From NCBI GenBank assembly GCA_037140955.1, contig JBAXDL010000004.1, positions 15,268-79,267 of the forward strand: a stretch of 64,000 nucleotides of DNA, in the 5' to 3' direction. A program made the translations under genes and the position numbers. A model generated the notes under the pieces. That model was not told the origin of the DNA. It was given only the letters and a program-made list of their open reading frames with translations, and did not search any database. The DNA is from a bacterium. Its GTDB lineage: Bacteria; Patescibacteriota; Minisyncoccia; Moranbacterales; GWC2-37-73. Below, in pieces: positions 16,490 through 39,984 of this stretch (the first letter of the stretch is position 1; each line of letters starts with the position of its first letter).

Positions 16490-16915
16490 ATGGAATATCT
16501 TCTTTTGTTTGTTGGAATCGTTTTCGTTTCTATCGTTGGTGCTTTTTTACAAACGCGTATTAATTCTTGGTGGCTTGTTAGAAAGAGGCAAAATGCTTTA
16601 GCCATGCTTGAGCATTATCAGCTCTTGCTTGTTCAAGCAAGGGATTTGCTTGAACAGGTTCAAAAACTCAATGAGGAAAAAAGATTAAACAAGCCAATTT
16701 GGAGAGAGAAATATGAGTCAATGAACTATATTCATTTGCTCAAAAGATCAATTTGTGGCTGTGAAGAGGCAGCTCAGATGATAGGATTGTTCTTAAAAAA
16801 AGATGACAACGAAAGCGTGGCAATGGCCAGAAGGCACCTTGGCAAATTCACGGTCCATCTTGTCATTCAAATGTTTCGCATGAGGGCATCAATTGATGAT
16901 GCTAAAAAAGATTAG
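16490..16915 (+). CDS. Hypothetical protein with N-terminal TM helix
   Basis: 141 aa; one TM then a charged helical region; no recognised domain. Confidence 0.35.
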   Translation: MEYLLLFVGIVFVSIVGAFLQTRINSWWLVRKRQNALAMLEHYQLLLVQARDLLEQVQKLNEEKRLNKPIWREKYESMNYIHLLKRSICGCEEAAQMIGLFLKKDDNESVAMARRHLGKFTVHLVIQMFRMRASIDDAKKD

Positions 16916-16934
16916 TAAAAAATTACTAAAAACA

Positions 16935-16972
16935 CCTAGTCATTGAATAATGGCTAGGTGTTTTAAATTTAT
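16935..16972 (+). terminator. Intrinsic terminator
   Basis: acacctag-(14 nt)-ctaggtgt 8-bp stem followed by tttt. Confidence 0.5.
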
Positions 16973-28411: not shown

Positions 28412-29029
28412 ATGAATAATAATTCTATAAAACCTTCACCACTAGTTCAAAATTTTTCAAATAATACTCCTACGGGCAAGGCACTTGAAATAGGCTTTGG
28501 TTATGGTGATAATGCTATATTTTTGGCTCAACAAGGTTTTTCTGTTGTTGCTGTTGATATAAATAAAGAAATGGTTGAAAATCTTAAAGAGCGATCAATG
28601 CAATATGCAGTTGATTTAGAAATTATAAAAAATGATATTAGAAATTTTTTAATTAAGGATAATGAATATACTTTTATTTCTGCCTTAAATTGTTTAAACT
28701 TTCTATCAAAAGAAGAATTTTTTAATATAATGGAGAAGATAAAAAATGGATTAAAAAATGATGGTGTTTGTGTGATTGCATTGTTTACGGTTGATGATGA
28801 AATGTGTGAAGAAGTAAGCAGAAAAACAAATGGAAAATTTGATGATGATAATGGGAAGAAATGGTTTTTTCTTAAATCTGGGGAATTGAAAGAACTTTTT
28901 GAAAATGATTTTTTAATACTTTTCTATAAGGAAGTTATTATTGATGATAATGGTCATGTCGGTAAGGAGCTTCCACATAGACATGCTGTTGCACGAATCG
29001 TTGCAAAAAAAAGAAGCGCTATTGTTTAA
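28412..29029 (+). CDS. Class I SAM-dependent methyltransferase (TehB-like)
   Basis: Motif I LEIGFGYGDN, motif II VVAVDIN. Confidence 0.65.
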   Translation: MNNNSIKPSPLVQNFSNNTPTGKALEIGFGYGDNAIFLAQQGFSVVAVDINKEMVENLKERSMQYAVDLEIIKNDIRNFLIKDNEYTFISALNCLNFLSKEEFFNIMEKIKNGLKNDGVCVIALFTVDDEMCEEVSRKTNGKFDDDNGKKWFFLKSGELKELFENDFLILFYKEVIIDDNGHVGKELPHRHAVARIVAKKRSAIV

Positions 29030-29043
29030 GCGCCTCTCTATTG

Positions 29044-30138
29044 TTAAAAGTGATCAATTGTTTTTTCTTTAATATGTTCAAATAATTCCTTTTTCATGAA
29101 GCAGTCAGGATCAATACTATCAAATGAACCATTTATAATGAGTCGTTCATATGCACATCCGTTTCCACATGTATTGAGCCATTCGCATGTCGTACATTTT
29201 TTGTTTACACTGCATAAATTTTTATACATATCCTTGGCGTTGTTGTAAATTTCCAACAATGACATTTCAAGGATATTCCCTATGCAATAATCTTTGCGTT
29301 CAACATATCTATGACAAGGATATACGTCGCCATTTGAGGTGATAGACATAAATCCATAGCATCCATTTATGTTGGATGTGCAATCCATGGGTCTACCGCC
29401 AGAAAGTACCCTTAAGACGTTTCTGAAATTTCTGATTGGAAATCCTGGTTCATCATCTGCCATCCAAAGATCGAAAACTTTTTTAAGGAAATCAGTAGTT
29501 TCTTTTTCGGTTGGAATAGTATCAATGGATGAATTTTCATCTTGACCACAAAAATGAAAGTTGCAACTCGTAATTCCACAAGCTTTTAACTCCGCATAAA
29601 CCTGTTCTGCTTTGTGGACGTTGCTTTTTGTGATTAAGGAAACCGCTCCAATTGGCTCTCCTTTGTTGCGCCACATCGAAATTGATTTTAGTACGTTTTT
29701 ATGCGTGCCAGAACCATCACTGAAAATTCGATTAGCATCATGCGAATCTTTATCACCATCAATACTTGTACTAATGATAAATTTATTTTTCATTAGAAAA
29801 TCGCATGTTTTTTTGTTGAATAGCGTCATATTAGATTGAATGACATTCCTAACTTTTCCAGAAAAAATTGATCCATTTAAAAATGCTTTACTCTGAAACT
29901 TGATTGCTTTTTTGAAATGATCAATCCCTGCCAGTAGTGGCTCTCCTCCATGCCAAAGGAAATCTATATCACACGTTTCAAATTCCCTCGCATTAAACAT
30001 GATTTTCTCAAGAATTTCATCAGACATCCTCTCATATTTTTTGATGTTTTTTGATACACATCCATGATAGCAATATTTGCAAGCAATATTGCAACTTAGT
30101 CCAACGGGAAGAATTAAGAAAGTCATCTTTTCTCTCAT
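29044..30138 (-). CDS. Radical SAM/SPASM-domain peptide maturase (anSME/SCIFF-maturase-like)
   Basis: CNIACKYC (CxxxCxxC) radical SAM cluster motif near the N-terminus; C-terminal Cys-rich SPASM-like region (CTSNINGC...CH, CTTCEWLNTCGNGC). Confidence 0.85.
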   Translation of the reverse strand: MREKMTFLILPVGLSCNIACKYCYHGCVSKNIKKYERMSDEILEKIMFNAREFETCDIDFLWHGGEPLLAGIDHFKKAIKFQSKAFLNGSIFSGKVRNVIQSNMTLFNKKTCDFLMKNKFIISTSIDGDKDSHDANRIFSDGSGTHKNVLKSISMWRNKGEPIGAVSLITKSNVHKAEQVYAELKACGITSCNFHFCGQDENSSIDTIPTEKETTDFLKKVFDLWMADDEPGFPIRNFRNVLRVLSGGRPMDCTSNINGCYGFMSITSNGDVYPCHRYVERKDYCIGNILEMSLLEIYNNAKDMYKNLCSVNKKCTTCEWLNTCGNGCAYERLIINGSFDSIDPDCFMKKELFEHIKEKTIDHF

Positions 30139-30627: not shown

Positions 30628-31422
30628 ATGAATTCAGAAATTGAAAAGAAAGAAGTTATTGAGGGTGATTTTGACGTGGAAAGCATGTATACCACACTTT
30701 CTGAGGCAAAAGCTGAGGTTTGGAGAAGGTGGAATGACAAGGAGCTTCGAAAAAAGGTTGAAGAATATTTGGGTGAGATTCCTGATGTTTTTAAGGCTGA
30801 GCCGAGGGCTGTTCTTGCAAGACATGTAACAACTCCAAATTTAGAATTGGGATTATTTCTTGAGATGTCTAAAATGGCAGAATTAAAGCCTGTTAATCTT
30901 GAATACATTAAGGATAAATTTAGAATTAGTAATTTTGATAAGAGATATATCGCAAAAATGCCATTTGTTAAACGAAACGAATATGGTGGTGAGAAAGACG
31001 TGCGTTTTATGGATAGTATCTCCTTTGATGAGTTTGAAGGAGTATGTTTTGATAAAATTAGTACAATATGGGGGGAAAAATTTGTTTGTTTTCATCATAG
31101 ATTGCTCAACTGTGACGAGAAAGATATTGATATTTGTGATATTTCCGATTGGTATGAGTTAAAAGGTGGTTTTGCGCATAGTTATATGAAATATTTTATG
31201 AGCTTGTTTTTATGCAACGGAATTCTTTTTGAAAATTATTTAATAGGGACAACTGATGAAGAAAAATATTTTACGCAAAATGTGGTTTATAAGAATTTTA
31301 AAAAAATAGAAAATAAATTTGGAATTAAGCCTTTAATAGTACGTTTAATACCATCAAATGAAGAGCTAGATTTATATTGGTGGAGTTATTCTAATGACTT
31401 AGAAAAAAATATTTATGTGTAA
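30628..31422 (+). CDS. Hypothetical cytoplasmic protein
   Basis: 264 aa, no recognised motif; its stop overlaps the start of the downstream kinase gene. Confidence 0.4.
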   Translation: MNSEIEKKEVIEGDFDVESMYTTLSEAKAEVWRRWNDKELRKKVEEYLGEIPDVFKAEPRAVLARHVTTPNLELGLFLEMSKMAELKPVNLEYIKDKFRISNFDKRYIAKMPFVKRNEYGGEKDVRFMDSISFDEFEGVCFDKISTIWGEKFVCFHHRLLNCDEKDIDICDISDWYELKGGFAHSYMKYFMSLFLCNGILFENYLIGTTDEEKYFTQNVVYKNFKKIENKFGIKPLIVRLIPSNEELDLYWWSYSNDLEKNIYV

Positions 31423-33112
31423 TTTTGAAATACCGTCCACATTGTTTTATTTTTATATTCCAGTTTTGATTGGTGCTTTTTTGCTTGCTTTTCTAATTTT
31501 TTTTTCAAATAAAAAATCACAATCAAATAGGGATTTATTTGTCTTTATTCTAACTCTCTGTTTTTGGATTTTTATAAGTTTATTTGAATATTTTCCTTTT
31601 GATAGTAGTGTTAATTTATTTGTTGCTAGATTATTAGTGTTAACATCGTTGGAATTATTGTTTTTCTTATTCTTTTCTTATTCTTTTGTTGGCAAACCAC
31701 TTGATATTAAAAAGAGAATTTTATTTTTTTTGCCATTTATTCCAATAATTTTTTTGCTGCCTACTGATCTAAATATAAAGATGGTTGATTATGCAAGTTG
31801 CCAAAATGAAAATGGATATCTTTATTGGTATGTTTATTTTATACTATTTATTTATCTTGGAATGGCTCTTAAGAATTTTTTTAAAAGTTATAATGCAGAA
31901 AAAAGCGATAGTATTCTAAAGAAACAAATACGAATAGTGTCATATTCTATTGGTTTTTTGGTTACATGGTTTGTAGTTCTTGTTGAGCTTGTTGATTATT
32001 ATTCTAGAGTTGGAAATTTTGTCTTGAGTAATGATGTTATACCTATGTTTATACCAGTTGGTATACTTATTTTCATTGGGTTTCTTTTTTATGCAATTAC
32101 AAAGTATCAGTTTCTTGAAATTAAAATGATTGCTGCTCAGATTTTAACCTATGCTGTTTGGATACTTATTGGTTCTCAGTACTTCTTTGCTGATTCGGTT
32201 TCTCAATATTTACTTATTGCATTGACATTGTTGCTTTCAATCATCTTTGGAATTTTCTTGATAAAATCGGTGAAGAATGAAATAGACAGAAAGGAAGAGT
32301 TGCAGATCATGGCGGATCGTTTGGCATCGGCCAATGATCAATTGCGCAAATTGGACAATGCCAAAACAGAGTTTATTTCCATTGCTTCTCATCAATTGCG
32401 CACACCGATCACTGCAATCAAGGGTTTTGCTTCTCTTTTGCTGGAAGGGTCATATGGTGAGATCAGTGAGAGTGTGCATGGGGCTTTGGACAAGATTTAT
32501 CTTTCATCGGAACGTTTGGTGAATTTGATTGAGGATTTGTTGAATGTCTCTCGCATTGAATCTGGTCGCATGGCTTTTGTTTTTGAAAAAGCTTCTGTGA
32601 CAAAATTGTTGCAAGAGTTGTATGACAATTTCATTTTGATTGCCAAAACAAAGAAGTTTTATTTGGATTTGAAAATGCCGGAGCAGCCTTTGCCTGAGAT
32701 TGTGATGGATTATTCCAAGATTCGCGAGTTGGTTTCGAATTTCATTGATAATGCGCTGAAATATACTGAAAAAGGTGGGGTGACAATTCGAGCTGAAATC
32801 AAAGATGAAGGTGTTGTGATTGATGAAAATGGCTTTGTGGTTGAAGGTCAAAAATCAGAGTTTGGCAAAATGATTCGCATCACTGTTTCTGACACTGGAA
32901 TTGGAATTCCACGCGAAGAAATTCCATATCTTTTCAAAAAGTTTTCACGTGGCAAAGACGTTTCACGCCTCCACGTTGGTGGCACAGGTCTTGGGCTCTA
33001 TGTGGGCAAGGCTATTGCCGAAAACCATCATGGCCAAGTTTGGATTGAATCTGAAGGTGCCGGCAAGGGTTCCAAATTCATCATTGAGGTGCCGATTGAG
33101 AGGGTTGGGTAG
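31415..33112 (+). CDS. Sensor histidine kinase with polytopic (about 7-8 TM) N-terminal sensor
   Basis: H-box SHQLRTPITAIKGF, HATPase_c G1/G2 boxes (DTGIGIP, GGTGLGL); no adjacent response regulator. Confidence 0.8.
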   Translation: MCNFEIPSTLFYFYIPVLIGAFLLAFLIFFSNKKSQSNRDLFVFILTLCFWIFISLFEYFPFDSSVNLFVARLLVLTSLELLFFLFFSYSFVGKPLDIKKRILFFLPFIPIIFLLPTDLNIKMVDYASCQNENGYLYWYVYFILFIYLGMALKNFFKSYNAEKSDSILKKQIRIVSYSIGFLVTWFVVLVELVDYYSRVGNFVLSNDVIPMFIPVGILIFIGFLFYAITKYQFLEIKMIAAQILTYAVWILIGSQYFFADSVSQYLLIALTLLLSIIFGIFLIKSVKNEIDRKEELQIMADRLASANDQLRKLDNAKTEFISIASHQLRTPITAIKGFASLLLEGSYGEISESVHGALDKIYLSSERLVNLIEDLLNVSRIESGRMAFVFEKASVTKLLQELYDNFILIAKTKKFYLDLKMPEQPLPEIVMDYSKIRELVSNFIDNALKYTEKGGVTIRAEIKDEGVVIDENGFVVEGQKSEFGKMIRITVSDTGIGIPREEIPYLFKKFSRGKDVSRLHVGGTGLGLYVGKAIAENHHGQVWIESEGAGKGSKFIIEVPIERVG

Positions 33113-33119
33113 GGATGTT
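32936..33119 (+). repeat. Direct repeat copy 1 (184 bp): the 3' end of the histidine kinase gene plus 7 nt
   Basis: 182 of 184 nt identical to 35926..36109. Confidence 0.85.
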
Positions 33120-33209
33120 TTATGTTGACATAGTATAATTTTTTATGTTATATATTATTAAGGGTATTGAAGTAATTGTTCCTTAAATTAAGCAAAAAAG
33201 GAGTGTGCC

Positions 33210-34000
33210 ATGACTGACCTATCTTTGTATTTATTTGCACAGAAAGAAAGAATAAAAACATTATATGCATATAGAAATAGGAGTTGGAGAAAGCTTCCTA
33301 TACTGGAAAATGGTGAAAAGCTTGTAATTATTCCATTTGAAATGTGTCATCCTTTTTATTATTTGGATATGAAAATTTCAAATAGTAAAGATATTTTTAT
33401 AAGAGAGGATGTTTTTTCTCGATTTCTTGTTGCAAAAAAGATCGCGTCATCCTATGGTTTTGATTTAATTGTATTTGATGGTTGGAGATCCATTGAATTG
33501 CAGGAGAGTTTATTTTGGTATTATCTTAAAAAGTTTATAGTAGAAAAATTTAACATGAAAGATGTTTTTTCATGCGCAGATGATGTTTCTGATATAAAAA
33601 GAATATTTCTTTCTTTGCCAGAAAATAATCAAGTTTTAATGATGGAGGCAAATCGTTCTTATGTTAGTTGGCCATCAAGTGATCCATTTTGTCCAAGTCC
33701 TCATGCGACAGGTGGCTCTATTGATGTTTGGCTTTATCGCGATAATGTCCCAGTTAATCTTGGTGTTCCATTTATTGGATGGAAAAAGATGCTGGAGCAT
33801 TTTATCATCTAAAGATAAAAAGGGAGCCATTTCTTGTAAATGATAAGAATATTTCAAGAAATAGAAATATTCTTATTTATTCAATTGTAAAAGCTGGATT
33901 TTCATGCTATGGTCCGGAGTTATGGCATTTTAATTTTGGTAATCAGATGGACACGCTTGTTAGTGGTAAAATCGCTAGATACTCATATATTGAACCTTGA
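33210..34000 (+). pseudogene. VanX/DdpX-like D-Ala-D-Ala dipeptidase (peptidase M15D) with a -1 frameshift in an A5 run
   Basis: DGWRS and SPHATGGSIDV (SxHxxGxAxD) zinc-site motifs in frame 1. The C-terminal ...ELWHF motif is in another frame (33779..34000). A single extra A in the aaaaa run at 33783..33787 would restore one ORF. Confidence 0.6.
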
Positions 34001-34063
34001 TATAACATTAGGGCCTGTAGTAAATGCAGGCTCTATTTATTTAATATATTAATTTATGAAAAA

Positions 34064-35134
34064 ATGAAAAAAACAACAGTTGTAATTTTTTTTGGTGGAA
34101 AGTCTACAGAACACGAGGTTTCTATTCGAAGTGCTAGAATGGTTTTTAACTCTCTTGATAGGAAAAAATATGATATATTAGCTGTAGCAATAAACAAGAA
34201 AGGTATTTTTTTGTCTCCAGGACAGTCAATTGATGTTATAAAGAATGATGTTTGGCCACTTGATAAAAATATCGAAAAAGTATCAATATCTCAAAGTGAG
34301 GCATGCATTGTTTTCGAAGATAGAAAAATATTTTTTGATGTTGCCTTTCCTGTTATGCATGGCCCATTTGGTGAGGATGGAACAATGCAGGGACTACTCA
34401 AGTTAACAGCGGTTCCTTTTGTTGGTCCTGGTGTGCTTGGGTCTGCCATTGGGATGGATAAAGATGTTTCAAAGCGTCTTTTGCGTGATGCTGGAATCCC
34501 AATTGGATTATTCTTATCATTTAATAAATGTGAAATTAATTCAATATCATTTGATCTTTGTAAAAAGAAACTTGGACTCCCTTTATTTATAAAGCCAGCA
34601 AATCTTGGATCATCAGTCGGAGTTTTTAAGGTTCATAATAATGTTGAATTTGATATAGCTATAAAGAAGGCTTTCTTGTTTGATTCTAAAATACTTATAG
34701 AGCAGTATATAAAAGGAAGAGAGATTGAATGTGCCGTTATTGGTAATGAAGAATTGCAAGTATCTATTCCTGGAGAAATAGTGCCAACGCATGAGTTTTA
34801 CTCTTATGATGCGAAATATGTTGATGAGAATGGTGCAATTTTAAATATTCCAGCAAATATTCCAGCTTCAGTTGTTAGGAAGATTCAAATTATATCAGAA
34901 AAAACATATAAGGTTCTTTGTTGCGATGGAATGGCTAGGGTTGATTTTTTTCTCACATCGAAAAATGAATTATATGTTAATGAAATAAATACTATTCCAG
35001 GATTTACTTCTGTTAGCATGTTTCCTAAATTGTGGGAGGCTAGTGGTATTTCAAATCAAAAATTAGTAGATATTTTAGTGCAACTTGCTATGGATAGATT
35101 TAAAAATGAAAATAAATTAAAACTAACAATGTGA
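34064..35134 (+). CDS. ddl: D-alanine--D-alanine ligase
   Basis: N-terminal VIFFGGKSTEHEVS, ATP-grasp motifs, C-terminal EINTIPGFT. Confidence 0.9.
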   Translation: MKKTTVVIFFGGKSTEHEVSIRSARMVFNSLDRKKYDILAVAINKKGIFLSPGQSIDVIKNDVWPLDKNIEKVSISQSEACIVFEDRKIFFDVAFPVMHGPFGEDGTMQGLLKLTAVPFVGPGVLGSAIGMDKDVSKRLLRDAGIPIGLFLSFNKCEINSISFDLCKKKLGLPLFIKPANLGSSVGVFKVHNNVEFDIAIKKAFLFDSKILIEQYIKGREIECAVIGNEELQVSIPGEIVPTHEFYSYDAKYVDENGAILNIPANIPASVVRKIQIISEKTYKVLCCDGMARVDFFLTSKNELYVNEINTIPGFTSVSMFPKLWEASGISNQKLVDILVQLAMDRFKNENKLKLTM

Positions 35135-35140
35135 TTTTTT

Positions 35141-35920
35141 ATGGAAAATTTTTTTAAAAACATGGCATATGTTGATAGTCATGGAGAATCTGTTGATTTT
35201 GAGAAAAAAAGATTTAAATTTTGGCTAGAAAATGTTCCAAAGAAAATAAGAAGAATGGAGTATGAATTATCAGTTCTTTATAGGAGATTACTTAATGCTA
35301 ATTTGTATAAATTTGATAATAAAGAGAAGCACGGTAGATTCTTAGTATTGCCAGCTTTTAATGAGGAGGCCGAAAAATTAATGTGGGATCAGTTTGTTGG
35401 GAGTTTTTTACGGGGAAAAGATCGTATTATTGCATTTGATTCTATTGCGAATAAAGTAAGAGAAAATATTTCCGTGATAATGTCAGAAGCTGACATGTCC
35501 ATTGTTGATGAAAAAATAAAAATAATTGCAATTGGTGGATCCTCTTTTTATGGTCCGCGTAAGTTAGGTGAGAGGTTATCAGATATTGATATTCATATAT
35601 TACTAGATGATGATACTGATTTTTCTAATTTTGAAATTTTCCCTAAAACTAAAGAATCAGAAATTATAAATCCATATCATATAATTGGCACTGGAAAAAC
35701 AGATCAATCTCGTGGAAAAAATAGGCAAATTCACTGGTTGTTATATCCACATTTTCCAGTTTTAAATAAAATGAATAGTGATGAATTGAGCAGTGTTATT
35801 GCTGATCTTTCAAATAGTACAATAAAGAGAGAAGGTGAAATTATTAATACAATAGATAAGATGAGGAAGAGACTAGATGAATTAAGGCTTTTAGATATAA
35901 GAGAGAATCATTCATATTGA
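35141..35920 (+). CDS. Hypothetical protein with minimal nucleotidyltransferase motif
   Basis: GGSSFYG...DIDIHIL (GS-x-n-DxD) Pol-beta-type NTase signature. Confidence 0.4.
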   Translation: MENFFKNMAYVDSHGESVDFEKKRFKFWLENVPKKIRRMEYELSVLYRRLLNANLYKFDNKEKHGRFLVLPAFNEEAEKLMWDQFVGSFLRGKDRIIAFDSIANKVRENISVIMSEADMSIVDEKIKIIAIGGSSFYGPRKLGERLSDIDIHILLDDDTDFSNFEIFPKTKESEIINPYHIIGTGKTDQSRGKNRQIHWLLYPHFPVLNKMNSDELSSVIADLSNSTIKREGEIINTIDKMRKRLDELRLLDIRENHSY

Positions 35921-35925
35921 TAATT

Positions 35926-36109
35926 AAAAAGTTTTCACGCGGCAAAGACGTCTCACGCCTCCACGTTGGTGGCACAGGTCTTGGGCTCTATGTGGGCAAG
36001 GCTATTGCCGAAAACCATCATGGCCAAGTTTGGATTGAATCTGAAGGTGCCGGCAAGGGTTCCAAATTCATCATTGAGGTGCCGATTGAGAGGGTTGGGT
36101 AGGGATGTT
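35926..36109 (+). repeat. Direct repeat copy 2 (184 bp): orphan duplicate of the histidine kinase 3' end
   Basis: Encodes ...KKFSRGKDVSRLHVGGTGLGLYVGKAIAENHHGQVWIESEGAGKGSKFIIEVPIERVG*, identical to the kinase C-terminus; 2 mismatches in 184 nt. Confidence 0.85.
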
Positions 36110-36206
36110 GACAAAAACATCCTACAATGGTATTTTCTTCTCACATAGCTCTTTAACAAAAAGGGCCAAATATTGAATGATACTAACTTTTAAAGGGGGT
36201 AATATT

Positions 36207-36482
36207 ATGTTTGGATTTAAAAAGTCAAAAACCTATTGTTTTCATATTTCAAATTTCGATGAGATTTATGAAAATGATATAGAATTTTCTCAAAAAATTG
36301 ATGATAGTGGTTTGCCTTTGAATGCTTTTCCTGCACATCTTAATACAGAAAAAGGAGTATTTTGTGTTTGCATTTATTACAAAAAAGATCCATTGCTTGA
36401 AAATCCTGATTTTTCAGTTGAAAAAATGACAAAAATTTTGCAAGAATTGGGTTGCAATGTAACGTCAGTAGATGAAGAATAA
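36207..36482 (+). CDS. Small protein, tandem paralog A
   Basis: MFGFKKSKTYCFHISNFDEI...; GGGGG RBS 7 nt upstream; about 55% identical to paralog B, with a near-identical 95-bp 5' region. Confidence 0.45.
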   Translation: MFGFKKSKTYCFHISNFDEIYENDIEFSQKIDDSGLPLNAFPAHLNTEKGVFCVCIYYKKDPLLENPDFSVEKMTKILQELGCNVTSVDEE

Positions 36483-36532
36483 TCTAAAAACAAGGGAATT
36501 GAATGATACTAACTTTTAAAGGGGGTAATATT

Positions 36533-36808
36533 ATGTTTGGATTCAAAAAGTCAAAAACCTACTGTTTTCATATTTCAAATTTCGATGAGATTGAAAAAAA
36601 TGATATTGAAATTTATGAAAAGCTGGAACATGGTGCTTTGGAGCATTATTGTTTTACTGCAAAATTGGATTCTTCAAAAAAAGTTTTTTGTGTCTATGTG
36701 AATTATGAAAAAGATTTATTTTTGGAAAATCCAAATTTTTCACTTGAAAAAATGACAAATTTCATTAAAAGTACGGGGCTTATCATTCTTTCAGTAGACG
36801 AAGAATAA
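36533..36808 (+). CDS. Small protein, tandem paralog B
   Basis: Same N-terminus and C-terminal ...SVDEE as paralog A, with a divergent middle. Confidence 0.45.
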   Translation: MFGFKKSKTYCFHISNFDEIEKNDIEIYEKLEHGALEHYCFTAKLDSSKKVFCVYVNYEKDLFLENPNFSLEKMTNFIKSTGLIILSVDEE

Positions 36809-36835
36809 TCTCAAAACAAAAAAAGGAGGTGTAAG

Positions 36836-37774
36836 ATGGAAAACGTTATCGGCAGAAGGGATTTTTTGAAATTTGGAACAGCGATGGCAGCAGGACTTTC
36901 AATGGGAATGATTCCAGCGGGTTGCGCTGAAAATGCAAGATCAGATGATGCGGAAAGTTTTTCTCCAATCAAATATTCTTTCTTGATTGATGAAAACAAT
37001 TTTTCAAAAATAAATTCAGAAACTCAAATTGTTGAAAGCCTCACGCCTATCGCTGCTTATGGTTTAGATATAAAAGAACTCCATAGGCCAATAATGTTTG
37101 ATTCGTCTCTTATTGAAAAAGCCTCACAAGAAAAAGAGGCTTTGCTGTGCACTGACTCAGAAAAAACACTCGCATCAATTGTTCCTGTGGATTCGACTTT
37201 GTCTTTGGCTTTGGGTGTACAGGCAAATGGATTTTCCGAAATGATTGATGTGGCTGCTGATTCAATTTCTTCCATCTTGCAATATGGAAAACTTGATCTT
37301 GGTATGGATTTTTTTCATCAAGATTTGTTTTTGGGAAAAGCACTTGCTAAGCAGGGATTCAATACATTGGAAAAAGTTGAATATCATACAGATCTTTTTG
37401 GTTGGTTTTTTCAGGTTAGAGGTCCAGATTTTGATCCACTTGGATCCTGTGATCGCAGAAAGATTTCACATGTGCATCTTGAAATTGGTAAGAAGGATTA
37501 CAGGGGAAAGGTTAATAAAATAGCCAATTTTCATCTCGGAGCATATAAGGATGGAAAAAAGCGTTGTTTTGTGCTTTGGAATAATATTAGGCCACATAAC
37601 ATTTGCTGGAAATCATGCAATGCAAACAAAAAAACACTAACTGAGATGATGAAGTGGGTTATTATTTCAGTTGCTGCTGCACTTGGTATCTATCTCTCTG
37701 CTTTTATTATTGCAGCAATAGCAGAAGCTTTGGGTGTTGCATTGATTCCTGTTTTGGCTGCTTTGGCAATTTGA
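36836..37774 (+). CDS. Tat-signal secreted protein with C-terminal hydrophobic anchor
   Basis: Twin-arginine motif RRDFLKFG followed by AGC; C-terminal 45-aa hydrophobic stretch; Cys-rich region before the anchor. Confidence 0.5.
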   Translation: MENVIGRRDFLKFGTAMAAGLSMGMIPAGCAENARSDDAESFSPIKYSFLIDENNFSKINSETQIVESLTPIAAYGLDIKELHRPIMFDSSLIEKASQEKEALLCTDSEKTLASIVPVDSTLSLALGVQANGFSEMIDVAADSISSILQYGKLDLGMDFFHQDLFLGKALAKQGFNTLEKVEYHTDLFGWFFQVRGPDFDPLGSCDRRKISHVHLEIGKKDYRGKVNKIANFHLGAYKDGKKRCFVLWNNIRPHNICWKSCNANKKTLTEMMKWVIISVAAALGIYLSAFIIAAIAEALGVALIPVLAALAI

Positions 37775-37794
37775 AAAACCTTTTAACCTAATAA

Positions 37795-37832
37795 ACCGAT
37801 CTTGATAAATAATCAAGGTCGGTTTTTTCTTT
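37795..37832 (+). terminator. Intrinsic terminator
   Basis: ccgatcttga-taaataa-tcaaggtcgg hairpin (one G-U pair) followed by ttttttc. Confidence 0.5.
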
Positions 37833-37919
37833 TTAATATTTTTTTATTTGATTCTGTTTAGCAGTAATTGATTGTTTAAAATGCTTGCCTTTATATGCAT
37901 TTTATGTTAAAAATAAAGC

Positions 37920-38312
37920 ATGGATAATGATATTTTGGAGAAAATCAAGAATGTTTTTGAAAGAAGACAAGAAATAAAATTGGCTTATTTTTTTGGTTCT
38001 CAGGTGACTGGAAATGCTGGCCCTCTTAGTGACTTTGATTTTGCTTTTTATGTTGATGGGGTGGATAAAAAAGAGGCATTTGAAATCAAACTTTTTTTGG
38101 CTAACGAGATAGGAAAAATTCTCAAAACTGACAAGATTGATGTTGTTTGTTTGAATTCAGTTGATAACTTGGAATTAAAGTATGCCATCATTAGAGATGG
38201 GAAACTCTTGGTTGAGCAACAACCATACAAGTTGATTGTTGAGCCCAGGATCTTGAATGAATATTTCGATTTTCATAGCATGCTTGAGAGATATAATTTG
38301 ACTAACGGTTGA
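37920..38312 (+). CDS. mntA: MntA-type nucleotidyltransferase antitoxin
   Basis: GSxxxG-x-n-DFDFAF minimal NTase motif; forms a pair with the downstream HEPN gene. Confidence 0.75.
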   Translation: MDNDILEKIKNVFERRQEIKLAYFFGSQVTGNAGPLSDFDFAFYVDGVDKKEAFEIKLFLANEIGKILKTDKIDVVCLNSVDNLELKYAIIRDGKLLVEQQPYKLIVEPRILNEYFDFHSMLERYNLTNG

Positions 38313-38316
38313 ACAT

Positions 38317-38730
38317 ATGACAAATATTACAATAATAGAGAATAAAATTAGTTCCATTGAAAAGTATCTCAAAATTCTTGGTGGATATAAAAAATATTCT
38401 AAAAAAGAAATAGAGGAAAGTATTGATTTGAAGGGTGCTGTTGAGAGATATTTGTATTTGGTTATTCAATCAACGATTGAACTTTCTGAATCAGTGATTG
38501 CTTTTAATGGTTTTCGTAAGCCATCAACAATGTCTGAATCTTTTTATATCTTGCAGGAAAATAATATTATTTCCAATGAACTTTGTGAAAAAATGGTGCG
38601 CATGACGGGCTTTCGCAATATTGTGTCGCATGATTATGAAAAACTGGACTATGAAATTGTCTATGATGTTTTGCAAAGCAGATTGGTTGATATAGAAGAA
38701 TTTGTTAAGATTGTTTTTGTGGGTAAATAG
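38317..38730 (+). CDS. hepT: HepT-type HEPN (DUF86) toxin
   Basis: R-x4-HDY HEPN motif (FRNIVSHDY); about 137 aa; 4 nt after mntA. Confidence 0.75.
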   Translation: MTNITIIENKISSIEKYLKILGGYKKYSKKEIEESIDLKGAVERYLYLVIQSTIELSESVIAFNGFRKPSTMSESFYILQENNIISNELCEKMVRMTGFRNIVSHDYEKLDYEIVYDVLQSRLVDIEEFVKIVFVGK

Positions 38731-38775: not shown

Positions 38776-39984
38776 ATGAAAACAAGGGAACAATTGGTGG
38801 ATGAGATTATCAACAGGGGTGTGATTGTGGAATTTTTGCCAGAAAAAGAAAAGTTCAGACAGCGTTTGCTCAGTAATGATCCAATGAAAATATATATCGG
38901 AGCTGATCCAACTTCAACCTCACTTCATTTGAGTCATGCAAAGAACTATATGTTGCTTGAAGACATTCGCAAGCTTGGTCATGAGGTGTATGTTTTGTTT
39001 GGCAGCTTCACTGCACAAATTGGCGACCCGACTGACAAGTCAGTTGCCAGAAAGCAGTTGACTCAAACTGATGTGATGGAAAATGTGCAAGGATGGGTGC
39101 AGCAAATCAAACCATTGATGGATTTTGATGCCAAAGAAAACCCGCCAAAAATTGTGTACAATCATGAATGGCTTTCAAAAATGACCATGGAAGATGTGGT
39201 CAATTTGGCTTCCAATTTCACTGTGCAACAAATGTTGGAGCGGGACATGTTTGAAAAGCGTATGCAAGAAGAAAAACCAATTTATTTGCATGAATTTTTG
39301 TATCCTCTGATGCAAGGCTATGACAGTGTTGCCTTGAATGTGGAGGCTGAGCTTTGCGGAACTGACCAGATTTTCAATGCCTTGGTTGGCAGGACATTGC
39401 AAGGCAGACTCAACAATGTTGAAAAATTTGTGGTCGCGGTCAACTTGATGGAAAATCCAAACACAGGAGAATTGATGTCAAAAAGTCGTGGAACTGGAAT
39501 ATTTTTGAATTTTAGTGCTCAGGATATGTTTGGTGCAATCATGTCTCAACCTGATGAGATGATAAAGATTTTCTTGGTCAACAACACGAGAATATCCTTG
39601 GATGAAATTGATGAAATTTTGAAAAATGAAAACCCAAGAGATGCAAAAATCAAAACAGCTGTTGAAATTGTGAGCATTTTTCATGGAAAAGAAAAGGCCA
39701 ATGAGGCCAAGGAATATTTCATCAAAACCATTTCCAACAAGGAAATTCCTGATCAAGTTGAAGAATTTGAAGTTTCCGAAAAAGAAATCAAGCTCTTGGA
39801 GCTGTTGGTTGGATCAAAAAATGCTACCAGCATGAGCGATGCTCGTCGCAAGGTTGAGCAGGGAGGTGTGAGTGTTGATGGCGAGAAAATATCCGAAGTT
39901 GCCATGATTGTTGATCAATCTTTCGATGGCAAAGTTTTTAAGATTGGAAAGCTTGGATTTGTTAGGGTGAAATTTGCAAAATAA
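38776..39984 (+). CDS. tyrS: Tyrosine--tRNA ligase
   Basis: HIGH-like SLHLSH, KMSKS (LMSKSRG), C-terminal S4-like domain. Confidence 0.9.
   Translation: MKTREQLVDEIINRGVIVEFLPEKEKFRQRLLSNDPMKIYIGADPTSTSLHLSHAKNYMLLEDIRKLGHEVYVLFGSFTAQIGDPTDKSVARKQLTQTDVMENVQGWVQQIKPLMDFDAKENPPKIVYNHEWLSKMTMEDVVNLASNFTVQQMLERDMFEKRMQEEKPIYLHEFLYPLMQGYDSVALNVEAELCGTDQIFNALVGRTLQGRLNNVEKFVVAVNLMENPNTGELMSKSRGTGIFLNFSAQDMFGAIMSQPDEMIKIFLVNNTRISLDEIDEILKNENPRDAKIKTAVEIVSIFHGKEKANEAKEYFIKTISNKEIPDQVEEFEVSEKEIKLLELLVGSKNATSMSDARRKVEQGGVSVDGEKISEVAMIVDQSFDGKVFKIGKLGFVRVKFAK

Follow-up and report, generated by a model that had tools for sequence, protein, structure and literature searches.

Copies of a sensor-kinase gene end flank a D-alanine–D-alanine ligase cassette in a Patescibacterial genome

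Tandem genomic islands sharing one attachment (att) site, as known from the ssrA islands of Dehalococcoides and the cis-mobilisable elements (CIMEs) of streptococcal integrative and conjugative elements (ICEs), consist of blocks that are split by direct repeats of a gene end, and some of these blocks carry no recombinase and rely on one acting in trans. In transformable bacteria, insertion-duplication of the Campbell type takes place when a non-replicating circle enters by a single crossover within a shared segment, which is then found duplicated on both sides of the insert. The element e14 in icd of E. coli supplies a new 3' end to its target, which stays functional, and leaves a 163-bp orphan (pseudo-icd') at its far end (PMC6379469). 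Islands that lack a recombinase, for example the microcin H47 island, are described as needing none encoded by the element itself (PMC3191183, PMC5426353). Here we describe a locus within a 64,000-nt stretch (referred to as the window) of contig JBAXDL010000004.1 from an uncultured member of the Patescibacteriota, in which a D-alanine–D-alanine ligase gene (ddl) and its two neighbours are located between two copies (S1 and S2) of the 3' end of a sensor histidine kinase gene (Table 1). We give about an even chance to the reading that these repeats are the two junctions of a non-autonomous gene cassette, which was inserted at the 3' end of the conserved sensor kinase gene in a Campbell-type manner.

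S1 covers the kinase codons 508–565, the TAG stop codon and the following 7 nt, and S2 agrees with it over 184 nt with 2 mismatches at the repeat positions 15 and 27. It is the only pair of repeats of at least 150 nt in the window, and 184 nt with 99% identity cannot be of chance origin. All differences between the copies are found at synonymous third positions, 2 of them in the window and 4 in a record of the same locus in ENA. The kinase gene is the target of the insertion; it remains intact and ends in S1, the coding part of which (32936–33112) has a GC content of 0.50 vs 0.35 for the window. S2 starts 5 nt past the TGA of the preceding gene, and within it an open reading frame (ORF, 35917–36102) with a TTG start is mechanically callable. 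The locus thus resembles e14 (and phage 21) in icd in having a replacement gene end and an orphan duplicate, and also the length of 184 nt and the near-silent differences between the copies match this case. In contrast to e14, which is a 15-kb prophage-like element with integrase and excisionase, the insert has only 2.8 kb with three metabolic genes, no recombinase was found in it and the target is a histidine kinase gene.

As the source is metagenomic short-read data and the window departs from the ENA record exactly inside the repeats, one might suspect an assembly artefact, either a collapsed repeat or a chimera of two strains, which the original prediction had also named as an alternative. 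The ENA contig (ERZ27300110 k141_714046, 274.6 kb) shows the same arrangement as the window, with the copies differing at four sites. There the longest exact run common to both copies is 58 nt and thus shorter than the k=141 given in the contig name, so that the de Bruijn path through both copies should be unambiguous, judging from assembler behaviour. A comparison of the window with the ENA record over 21.7 kb shows only 2 differing nt, 33061 and 36009, both inside the repeats, and each of these sites flips to the base of the other repeat copy. This fits an exchange (gene conversion) between the copies, or alternatively a mixing of the consensus during assembly. A Logan unitig (SRR7053542) of 2,893 nt is identical to the window from 33090 to 35982 and extends on each side to 30 nt beyond the last base that is specific to one copy, which is expected for k=31; it supports both junctions and fits a tandem arrangement or a 2,990-bp circle alike. 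The kinase, the ligase and the proteins following them are on record in NCBI, JGI, ENA and Logan (contigs of 118, 285 and 275 kb), with the NCBI accession numbers being ordered as the genes. The same order is on record from three sources (NCBI, JGI and ENA), and analogous structures are present in the unrelated assemblies of two further loci, L010 and L012, described below. Together with the copy-specific sites of the ENA contig and the Logan unitig this makes an artefact scarcely credible, and the 184-nt repeat with its coordinates, its 2 mismatches and its orphan second copy, as originally predicted, was reproduced in the window, with the ENA contig and the Logan unitig having the same arrangement.

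Outside the repeat ends the flanking sequences are no more similar to each other than shuffled controls, with the exception of the 9-mer ATGTTGACA. The window contains it at 33122 and 36105 and nowhere else, which means that homology resumes for GACA past the 7-nt indel of the left junction. Behind S2 we found a hairpin at 36099–36125 with a dG of -11.3 kcal/mol (z -3.2), a stability that none out of 200 shuffled sequences reached. Of this hairpin the S1 junction retains only the left arm, and no hairpin folds there. We take the hairpin to be the native 3' structure of the kinase gene, which is intact after S2 only. The native hairpin thus follows S2, and the left end of the cassette lies in the hairpin loop, where the left junction breaks. 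This is in line with S2 and the DNA downstream of it representing the original gene end. A sigma-70-like match (TTGACA-17-TATTTT with TG extension, 36108–36136) overlaps the hairpin loop; its -35 box is made up of the repeat end and the loop, and TTGACA is also present at 33125–33130 ahead of the cassette. A crossover at the palindrome behind the stop codon was considered and dropped, since it would not require the duplicated coding tail.

A search for homologues of the kinase gave 2,412 hits at an E-value of 1e-30 or better, and full-length orthologues (46–70% identity) are found in the syntenic loci L006, L010 and L012. The closest relative of the window is L006, with identities of 92% for aspartyl-tRNA synthetase (AspRS), 86% for prolyl-tRNA synthetase (ProRS), 82% for LytB and 65% for the kinase. 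Its gene order is glycyl-tRNA synthetase, three unnamed genes, and then kinase, HIT, tyrosyl-tRNA synthetase (TyrRS), ProRS, LytB, response regulator and AspRS. Here the HIT gene directly follows the kinase gene, and ddl, the orphan tail and the genes of the window from 36110 to 38730 are missing, so that L006 represents an empty site. The ddl trio is also absent from the orthologous site in L012, the kinase of which is 70% identical, and in L007. The proposed comparison of orthologous loci thus showed the segment 33120..35925 to be missing from L006, L007 and L012. A partial second kinase in L007 (45–47% identity, residues 216–560) turned out to be a diverged paralogue and not a copy of the tail. 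As the gene content between kinase and ProRS differs from locus to locus, this interval is a variable hotspot.

Several other observations were made in this interval. The TyrRS of the window (38776–39984) and its counterpart in L006 have only 45% identity vs 82–92% for ProRS, LytB and AspRS, which suggests a xenologous replacement of TyrRS within the hotspot. Directly past the orphan tail a tandem duplication of 326 nt (36172–36824) is present, giving two paralogous ORFs of 101 aa with nucleotide identities of 89% and 73% in two blocks and no match to any family. A toxin–antitoxin pair of MNT (Polbeta/NTP_transf_2) and HepT is encoded at 37920–38730, which is the same kind of module as in two of the L010 cassettes. 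No kinase tail adjoins this pair, and no further degenerate kinase tails were found in the window downstream of 36110. A scan of genome contigs with the kinase detected only distant kinases (25–30% identity). A scan of metagenomes with a 26-mer of the repeat gave one contig, which belongs to a different species (81% nucleotide identity) and ends just past the kinase; an alternative arrangement from the same species was not among the results.

Orphan tails of the same kinase gene are present in two other lineages as well. L010 is a 557-kb contig of the Parcubacteria group; its kinase is 46% identical to the one in the window, and the last 17–35 codons of this kinase recur four times, with 53–95 nt aligned and 92–97% nucleotide identity to its own kinase tail. 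These tails are intergenic and each of them directly follows a block of genes. The HIT protein behind the last tail is 68% identical to the kinase-adjacent HIT of L006; the last tail and HIT therefore represent the ancestral junction, and about 7 kb have been stacked in between. The two MNT-HEPN cassettes of L010 are paralogous (81% nucleotide identity), and all four orphan tails have an ATT codon where the kinase has GTG. L012 has one decayed tail, which lies 5.1 kb downstream of its kinase and has segments of 62 nt (92% identity) and 31 nt (97%). It contains stop codons and three small insertions and is preceded by amidohydrolase, methyltransferase and radical-SAM/SPASM genes and an RNHCP gene. 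In a manual alignment the three insertions of this tail (16669–16968) have about 30–36 nt and form hairpins, and two of them end in GGGGTAAATC.

Every tail has its right end at the stop codon or a few bases past it and begins 0–14 nt after the stop codon of the preceding gene without any gene fragments, while the left ends vary and some tails show internal deletions. The duplicated tails have a variable length of 54–184 nt. Fixed right ends and variable left ends fit elements that are obliged to regenerate the gene end. We also considered a fixed att core at the KKFSRGKD codons, as the tail of the window and the L010 tails 2 and 4 start within three codons of each other, and dropped it because tails 2 and 4 belong to the paralogous cassettes and the remaining tails start elsewhere. 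A tail-flanked block containing ddl is found in the window and in L010, with the two ligases being only 33% identical, and no flanking kinase-tail repeats were detected at the ddl loci L008, L014, L016 and L020. Searching IMG/VR with an alignment of the kinase tails gave only unrelated kinases with 36–43% identity. What is worth following is that tail-flanked blocks turn up at the same kinase gene in three lineages. The repeats had been predicted to be the footprint of an insertion at a gene terminus, and this is supported by the empty site in L006, the four orphan tails in L010, the one in L012 and the intact kinase gene.

The L010 array with its blocks separated by repeats of a gene 3' end resembles tandem islands at one att site. 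However, the repeats known from such islands are cores of about 20–60 bp located in genes for tRNA or tmRNA, and one or more of the islands encode an integrase, whereas here the repeats have 54–184 nt and are protein-coding, and no integrase was found. A likeness also exists to integron arrays, which are built from units of one to four genes without recombinases, including toxin–antitoxin pairs, beside a fixed site and with a repeat following each unit. In contrast to integrons there is no adjoining IntI, the repeats are coding gene ends instead of palindromic attC sites, and the cassettes may have several genes with a spacing of their own; neither IntI with attI nor palindromic attC was found at the locus. 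The hallmarks of transposons or insertion sequences (transposase, terminal inverted repeats and a short target duplication of fixed length) were not found there either. From the hallmarks of integrative elements, flanking gene-end repeats with an intact gene and an unoccupied site (in L006) are present, whereas Pfam, NCBIfam and PHROG scans of the genes in the cassette and beside it gave no recombinase. The locus differs from its known analogues in the lack of a recombinase in cis, in the small size of the units and in its target.

Table 1: Positions of the features discussed, in the window unless another locus is named.
Feature	Position	Strand	Remarks
Sensor histidine kinase	31415..33112	+	565 aa, intact; multi-pass N-terminus, HisKA and HATPase_c (Pfam)
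Repeat copy S1	32936..33119	+	functional kinase gene end
Left junction	33120..33130	+	7-nt indel TTATGTT, then GACA, matching the 4 nt after S2
Cassette	33120..35925	+	2,806 nt; three same-strand genes between S1 and S2
M15 (VanX/DdpX-like) dipeptidase pseudogene (predicted)	33210..34000	+	weak Pfam PF01427 matches
DdlA-type D-alanine–D-alanine ligase (predicted)	34064..35134	+	356 aa, intact; Pfam, NCBIfam, PDB
259-aa protein	35141..35920	+	rare ddl-linked Patescibacterial family; motif GGSSFYGPRK..LSDIDI
Repeat copy S2 (orphan kinase tail)	35926..36109	+	differs from S1 at synonymous third positions only
Hairpin GTAGGGATGTT-GACAAA-AACATCCTAC	36099..36125	+	spans the orphan stop codon
Four-cassette array of L010	8013-15092		kinase; CYTH-NUDIX, tail; MNT-HEPN, tail; X-hydrolase-Mur ligase-Ddl, tail; MNT-HEPN, tail; HIT
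Members of the 259-aa family	window 35141-35920; L008 10001-10795; L010 10001-10765; L014 6001-6747; L016 6001-6762		

To take a closer look at the history of the tails we compared orphan and resident copies from the window and the ENA record, L010 and L012. From 25 distinct codon differences 22 are synonymous, TAG to TAA included, and the remaining three are conservative (V/I, R/K and A/S), while for random changes in these codons only about 24% would be expected to be synonymous. If the tails had been duplicated in situ, with a constrained resident and a neutral orphan, three or fewer replacements among 25 would have a probability of P = 5e-7. This bias indicates that the tails diverged while each of them was part of a working gene, and therefore at least one of them should have arrived by recombination from another genome. 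It also excludes retro-copies of the 3' end of the kinase mRNA. A segmental duplication in situ, by replication slippage, template switching or a tandem duplication followed by a deletion, would make S2 a decaying relic without any horizontal movement. The 7-nt stutter of the left junction in the hairpin loop, the further tandem duplication next door and the absence of a recombinase would all agree with it. However, the synonymous bias is unexpected for a neutral relic, a tandem copy needs further exact deletions in order to give the observed layout, L006 has an empty site, and the L012 tails are 21% diverged in one segment with nearly all of these changes being synonymous. We regard such a duplication as very improbable, and a recent duplication or deletion event, the other alternative named originally, is disfavoured by the bias and by the empty site.

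According to the Campbell-type reading that we favour, a circular form of the cassette would carry its own copy of the kinase tail, and one crossover between the tail of the circle and the chromosomal tail would let the kinase end in S1, with the cassette behind it and S2 joined to the native hairpin beyond. The crossover would be catalysed in trans, either by the homologous recombination of the host or by a recombinase encoded elsewhere. We base this reading on the regenerated gene, the fixed right boundary, the arrays and the empty site in the relative. In favour of host RecA are the variable lengths of the tails and the absence of a common core, and in favour of a site-specific enzyme acting in trans are the recurrence at one gene and the identity of only 79% in part of the L012 tail. 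As in Campbell insertion-duplication, a shared segment is duplicated on both sides of the insert and no recombinase of the element is needed, with the difference that insertion-duplication is mostly a laboratory phenomenon. We know of no description of a natural case in which the same gene end serves repeatedly as the segment shared in such a crossover.

Several points weigh against this reading. No recombinase genes were found in or near the arrays in the precomputed Pfam annotation of L001, L010 and L012, no conserved core or palindrome is common to the tails, and neither a circular form nor a polymorphic empty site in the same population was seen. For RecA, tail lengths of 54–184 nt are unfavourable, and so is the identity of 79% within a part of the tail in L012. 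The same synonymous bias would result if, after a duplication in situ, ordinary homologous recombination had replaced the resident allele of the kinase. Furthermore, upstream of ProRS ddl is found at a distance of one gene in L020 and of five genes in L010, it directly precedes the gene of a class II aminoacyl-tRNA synthetase of unconfirmed specificity in L014 and L015, and the Ddl of the window is 62% identical to that of L020, matching the backbone with 57–59%. With this synteny near ProRS and a divergence that matches the backbone, ddl could be native and not incoming. Finally, the examined lineages with tails are three in number, and the L010 cassettes K2 and K4 are paralogues, so that their common left boundary does not count as independent evidence.

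A native ddl is part of the main rival explanation, a linear import with one illegitimate end, and homology-facilitated illegitimate recombination of this kind is documented in competent bacteria (PMC3240628). In this scenario a fragment from a sibling strain that happens to start inside the kinase gene was joined illegitimately behind the resident ddl operon, with a homologous crossover further to the right, which implies that S2 and the genes for the 101-aa proteins, a 312-aa protein and MNT-HepT are incoming and the ddl operon is native. It would account for left ends that vary, a right end that is fixed, a divergence at synonymous sites and the lack of a recombinase. Its ddl would be in its old place, as ddl is found upstream of ProRS in L010 and L020 and before the class II synthetase gene in L014 and the divergence of Ddl tracks the backbone, and also the hotspot between kinase and TyrRS with a xenologous TyrRS (45% vs 86–92% for its neighbours) would be in line with an import. 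However, it needs a native left junction, yet the broken hairpin there shares 11 nt and GACA with the S2 junction, which would call for an extra and earlier event. The array of four tails in L010 would take repeated rare events, and tails starting 0–14 nt after a stop codon without gene fragments are unexpected for random ends. All in all we consider a linear import to be unlikely.

It could also be possible that an integrase-bearing element inserted site-specifically into the 3' end of the kinase gene and lost its integrase later, which would make the cassette a cis-mobilisable remnant with the repeats as att sites. Such a geometry is the same as that of e14 in icd (PMC6379469) and of the tandem ssrA islands, three lineages have insertions at one and the same conserved gene, and a divergence restricted to synonymous positions fits a tail that is brought in by the element and then serves as the functional end of the gene. 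Nevertheless, neither an integrase nor a remnant of one is present in the six cassettes, in about 60 Pfam-scanned or pre-annotated ORFs of the window or in the PHROG scan, the cassettes have only 0.8–5 kb, a common core sequence was not found and the matches in IMG/VR are no closer than 43% identity. This origin appears decidedly unlikely to us. In general, neither the cassette nor the about 60 ORFs of the window with a Pfam scan or a precomputed record yielded an integrase, transposase or resolvase, and the cassette has no terminal inverted repeats, the best score being equal to that of shuffled sequences. The nearest copies elsewhere show at most 72% identity for Ddl and 58% for the 259-aa protein, and thus there is no sign of a recent spread of the cassette. 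The original suggestion that the cassette could be mobile is therefore unsupported as far as autonomous mobility is concerned, with no integrase or transposase, no terminal inverted repeats and no copy of more than 72% identity.

The cargo is, as judged from sequence comparisons, a Patescibacterial cell-wall operon with an M15 dipeptidase (a pseudogene here), a DdlA-type ligase and a partner similar to nucleotidyltransferases. Its genes have a GC content at third codon positions of 0.20–0.22 vs a mean of 0.30 (sd 0.06) for the window. In the dipeptidase gene one nucleotide of an Asp codon is deleted at 33774 (GAT to AT), and this splits the gene into ORFs of 200 and 73 aa, and the frameshift is also present in the ENA and Logan contigs. 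Compared to the intact 263-aa homologue of L008 the two frames show 62% and 74% identity (tblastn), and the repaired translation keeps the catalytic motifs SPHATGGSID and ELWH. The ligase matches Dala_Dala_lig_N and Dala_Dala_lig_C in Pfam (2e-72 and 4e-30) and NF002528 in NCBIfam with 431 bits at a cut-off of 262, its best solved relative is DdlA from Salmonella (PDB 3i12, E 6e-102), and its omega loop EFYSYDAKY keeps the Lys-Tyr of dipeptide-forming ligases. It is thus predicted to be an ordinary D-Ala-D-Ala ligase of the DdlA type. A second ddl was not found in the 64-kb window.

A sensor kinase, an M15 dipeptidase and a ligase lying adjacent on one strand might suggest a van-type module for regulated cell-wall remodelling or resistance, with a VanS-like kinase, VanX and a ligase of altered specificity, and the trio is intact in L008. 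The original prediction had likened the ligase and the dipeptidase to van-type cell-wall remodelling cassettes. The vanHAX and vanC clusters indeed have a gene of the VanX family beside one of the D-Ala-D-X ligase family, downstream of a sensor kinase. Here, however, the ligase is canonical, the dipeptidase is inactivated, and VanH, VanT, VanY and an adjacent response regulator are missing. The ligase subfamily was checked from the omega loop, in which the retained Lys-Tyr points to the D-Ala-D-Ala type, and all Van hidden Markov models score far below their own cut-offs. There are no ORFs for VanH or VanT, the dipeptidase is frameshifted, the response regulator (77% identical to the Response_reg protein of L006) is located 12 kb downstream, and the trio of L008 has no adjoining kinase. 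We give the van-type reading very little credence, and with the NF002528 score, the Van models below cut-off, the missing VanH and VanT and the frameshift the original comparison to van cassettes was rejected. A false lead is thus removed, as the locus is not a van-type resistance cassette.

For the third gene of the cassette the predicted nucleotidyltransferase fold is less clear than the dipeptidase and ddl, both of which were confirmed. The 259-aa protein has no match in Pfam, NCBIfam or PHROG, its family shows an invariant G-S...D-x-D motif and its AlphaFold2 model has a pLDDT of 83. With this model Foldseek gave ANT(4') nucleotidyltransferases as top hits with a probability of 0.97, a weak E-value (9e-3) and a weak TM-score. 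Taking G-[GS]-x9-13-D-x-[DE] on a beta-sheet core and structural similarity to known nucleotidyltransferases as the criterion, a pol-beta-like nucleotidyltransferase fold is weakly supported by the model. The family is small (32 clusters among 1.84e9 representatives) and adjoins ddl, or is two genes away from it (L010), in every Patescibacterial locus that was read, namely L008/L009, L010, L013–L015 (Yanofskybacteria, among aminoacyl-tRNA synthetase genes) and L016–L019 (between the genes of EF-G and EF-Tu). In two lineages its gene overlaps the start of ddl or ends 1 nt before it. These proteins of about 250 aa may be a Patescibacteria-specific partner of Ddl.

On the other side of the kinase gene an uncharacterised conserved protein of 264–311 aa is encoded immediately upstream (window 30628–31422, L006 6115–6942, L012 8884–9819). 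Its gene overlaps the start of the kinase gene in the window and is 12–181 nt upstream of it in L006 and L012, and for the 264-aa protein there was no match in PDB or PHROG and none to a recombinase, with Pfam covering the window protein only. Three lineages have a radical-SAM(/SPASM) gene located a few kb upstream of the kinase (window 28412–30138, L012 6993–8549, L010 3117–4169). It is adjoined by a methyltransferase gene in the window and in L012, which may represent a small peptide-modification locus.

From the arrangement described here some consequences for the organism might be expected. With the repeats, the cassette should be open to deletion or to popping out in the form of a 2,990-bp circle, and the two copies to gene conversion. 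As the cassette is located between the stop codon and the hairpin of the kinase gene, read-through from the kinase could be possible. If ddl is present as the sole copy, there would be selection against its deletion, and the repeats would persist in this way. A doubtful extension would be a system of tail-addressed cassettes in Patescibacteria, in which recombinase-less units, each with a copy of the kinase 3' end, would hop as circles, stack in an integron-like manner and move between strains with the help of RecA or a recombinase in trans, carrying toxin–antitoxin pairs and the ddl operon as cargo, with the 2,990-bp unit being one active member. Mobile DNA and gene flow in the Candidate Phyla Radiation are poorly charted, and the locus points to a specific and checkable insertion hotspot at the highly conserved 3' end of one sensor kinase gene, where copies of the tail that look functional enclose the inserted blocks. 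If the pattern holds over hundreds of orthologous loci, it would represent a simple route for reduced genomes to trade small sets of genes, those for the cell wall included. The orphan tails would then be a marker for such cassettes, and a small, unannotated protein family tightly linked to ddl would be flagged.

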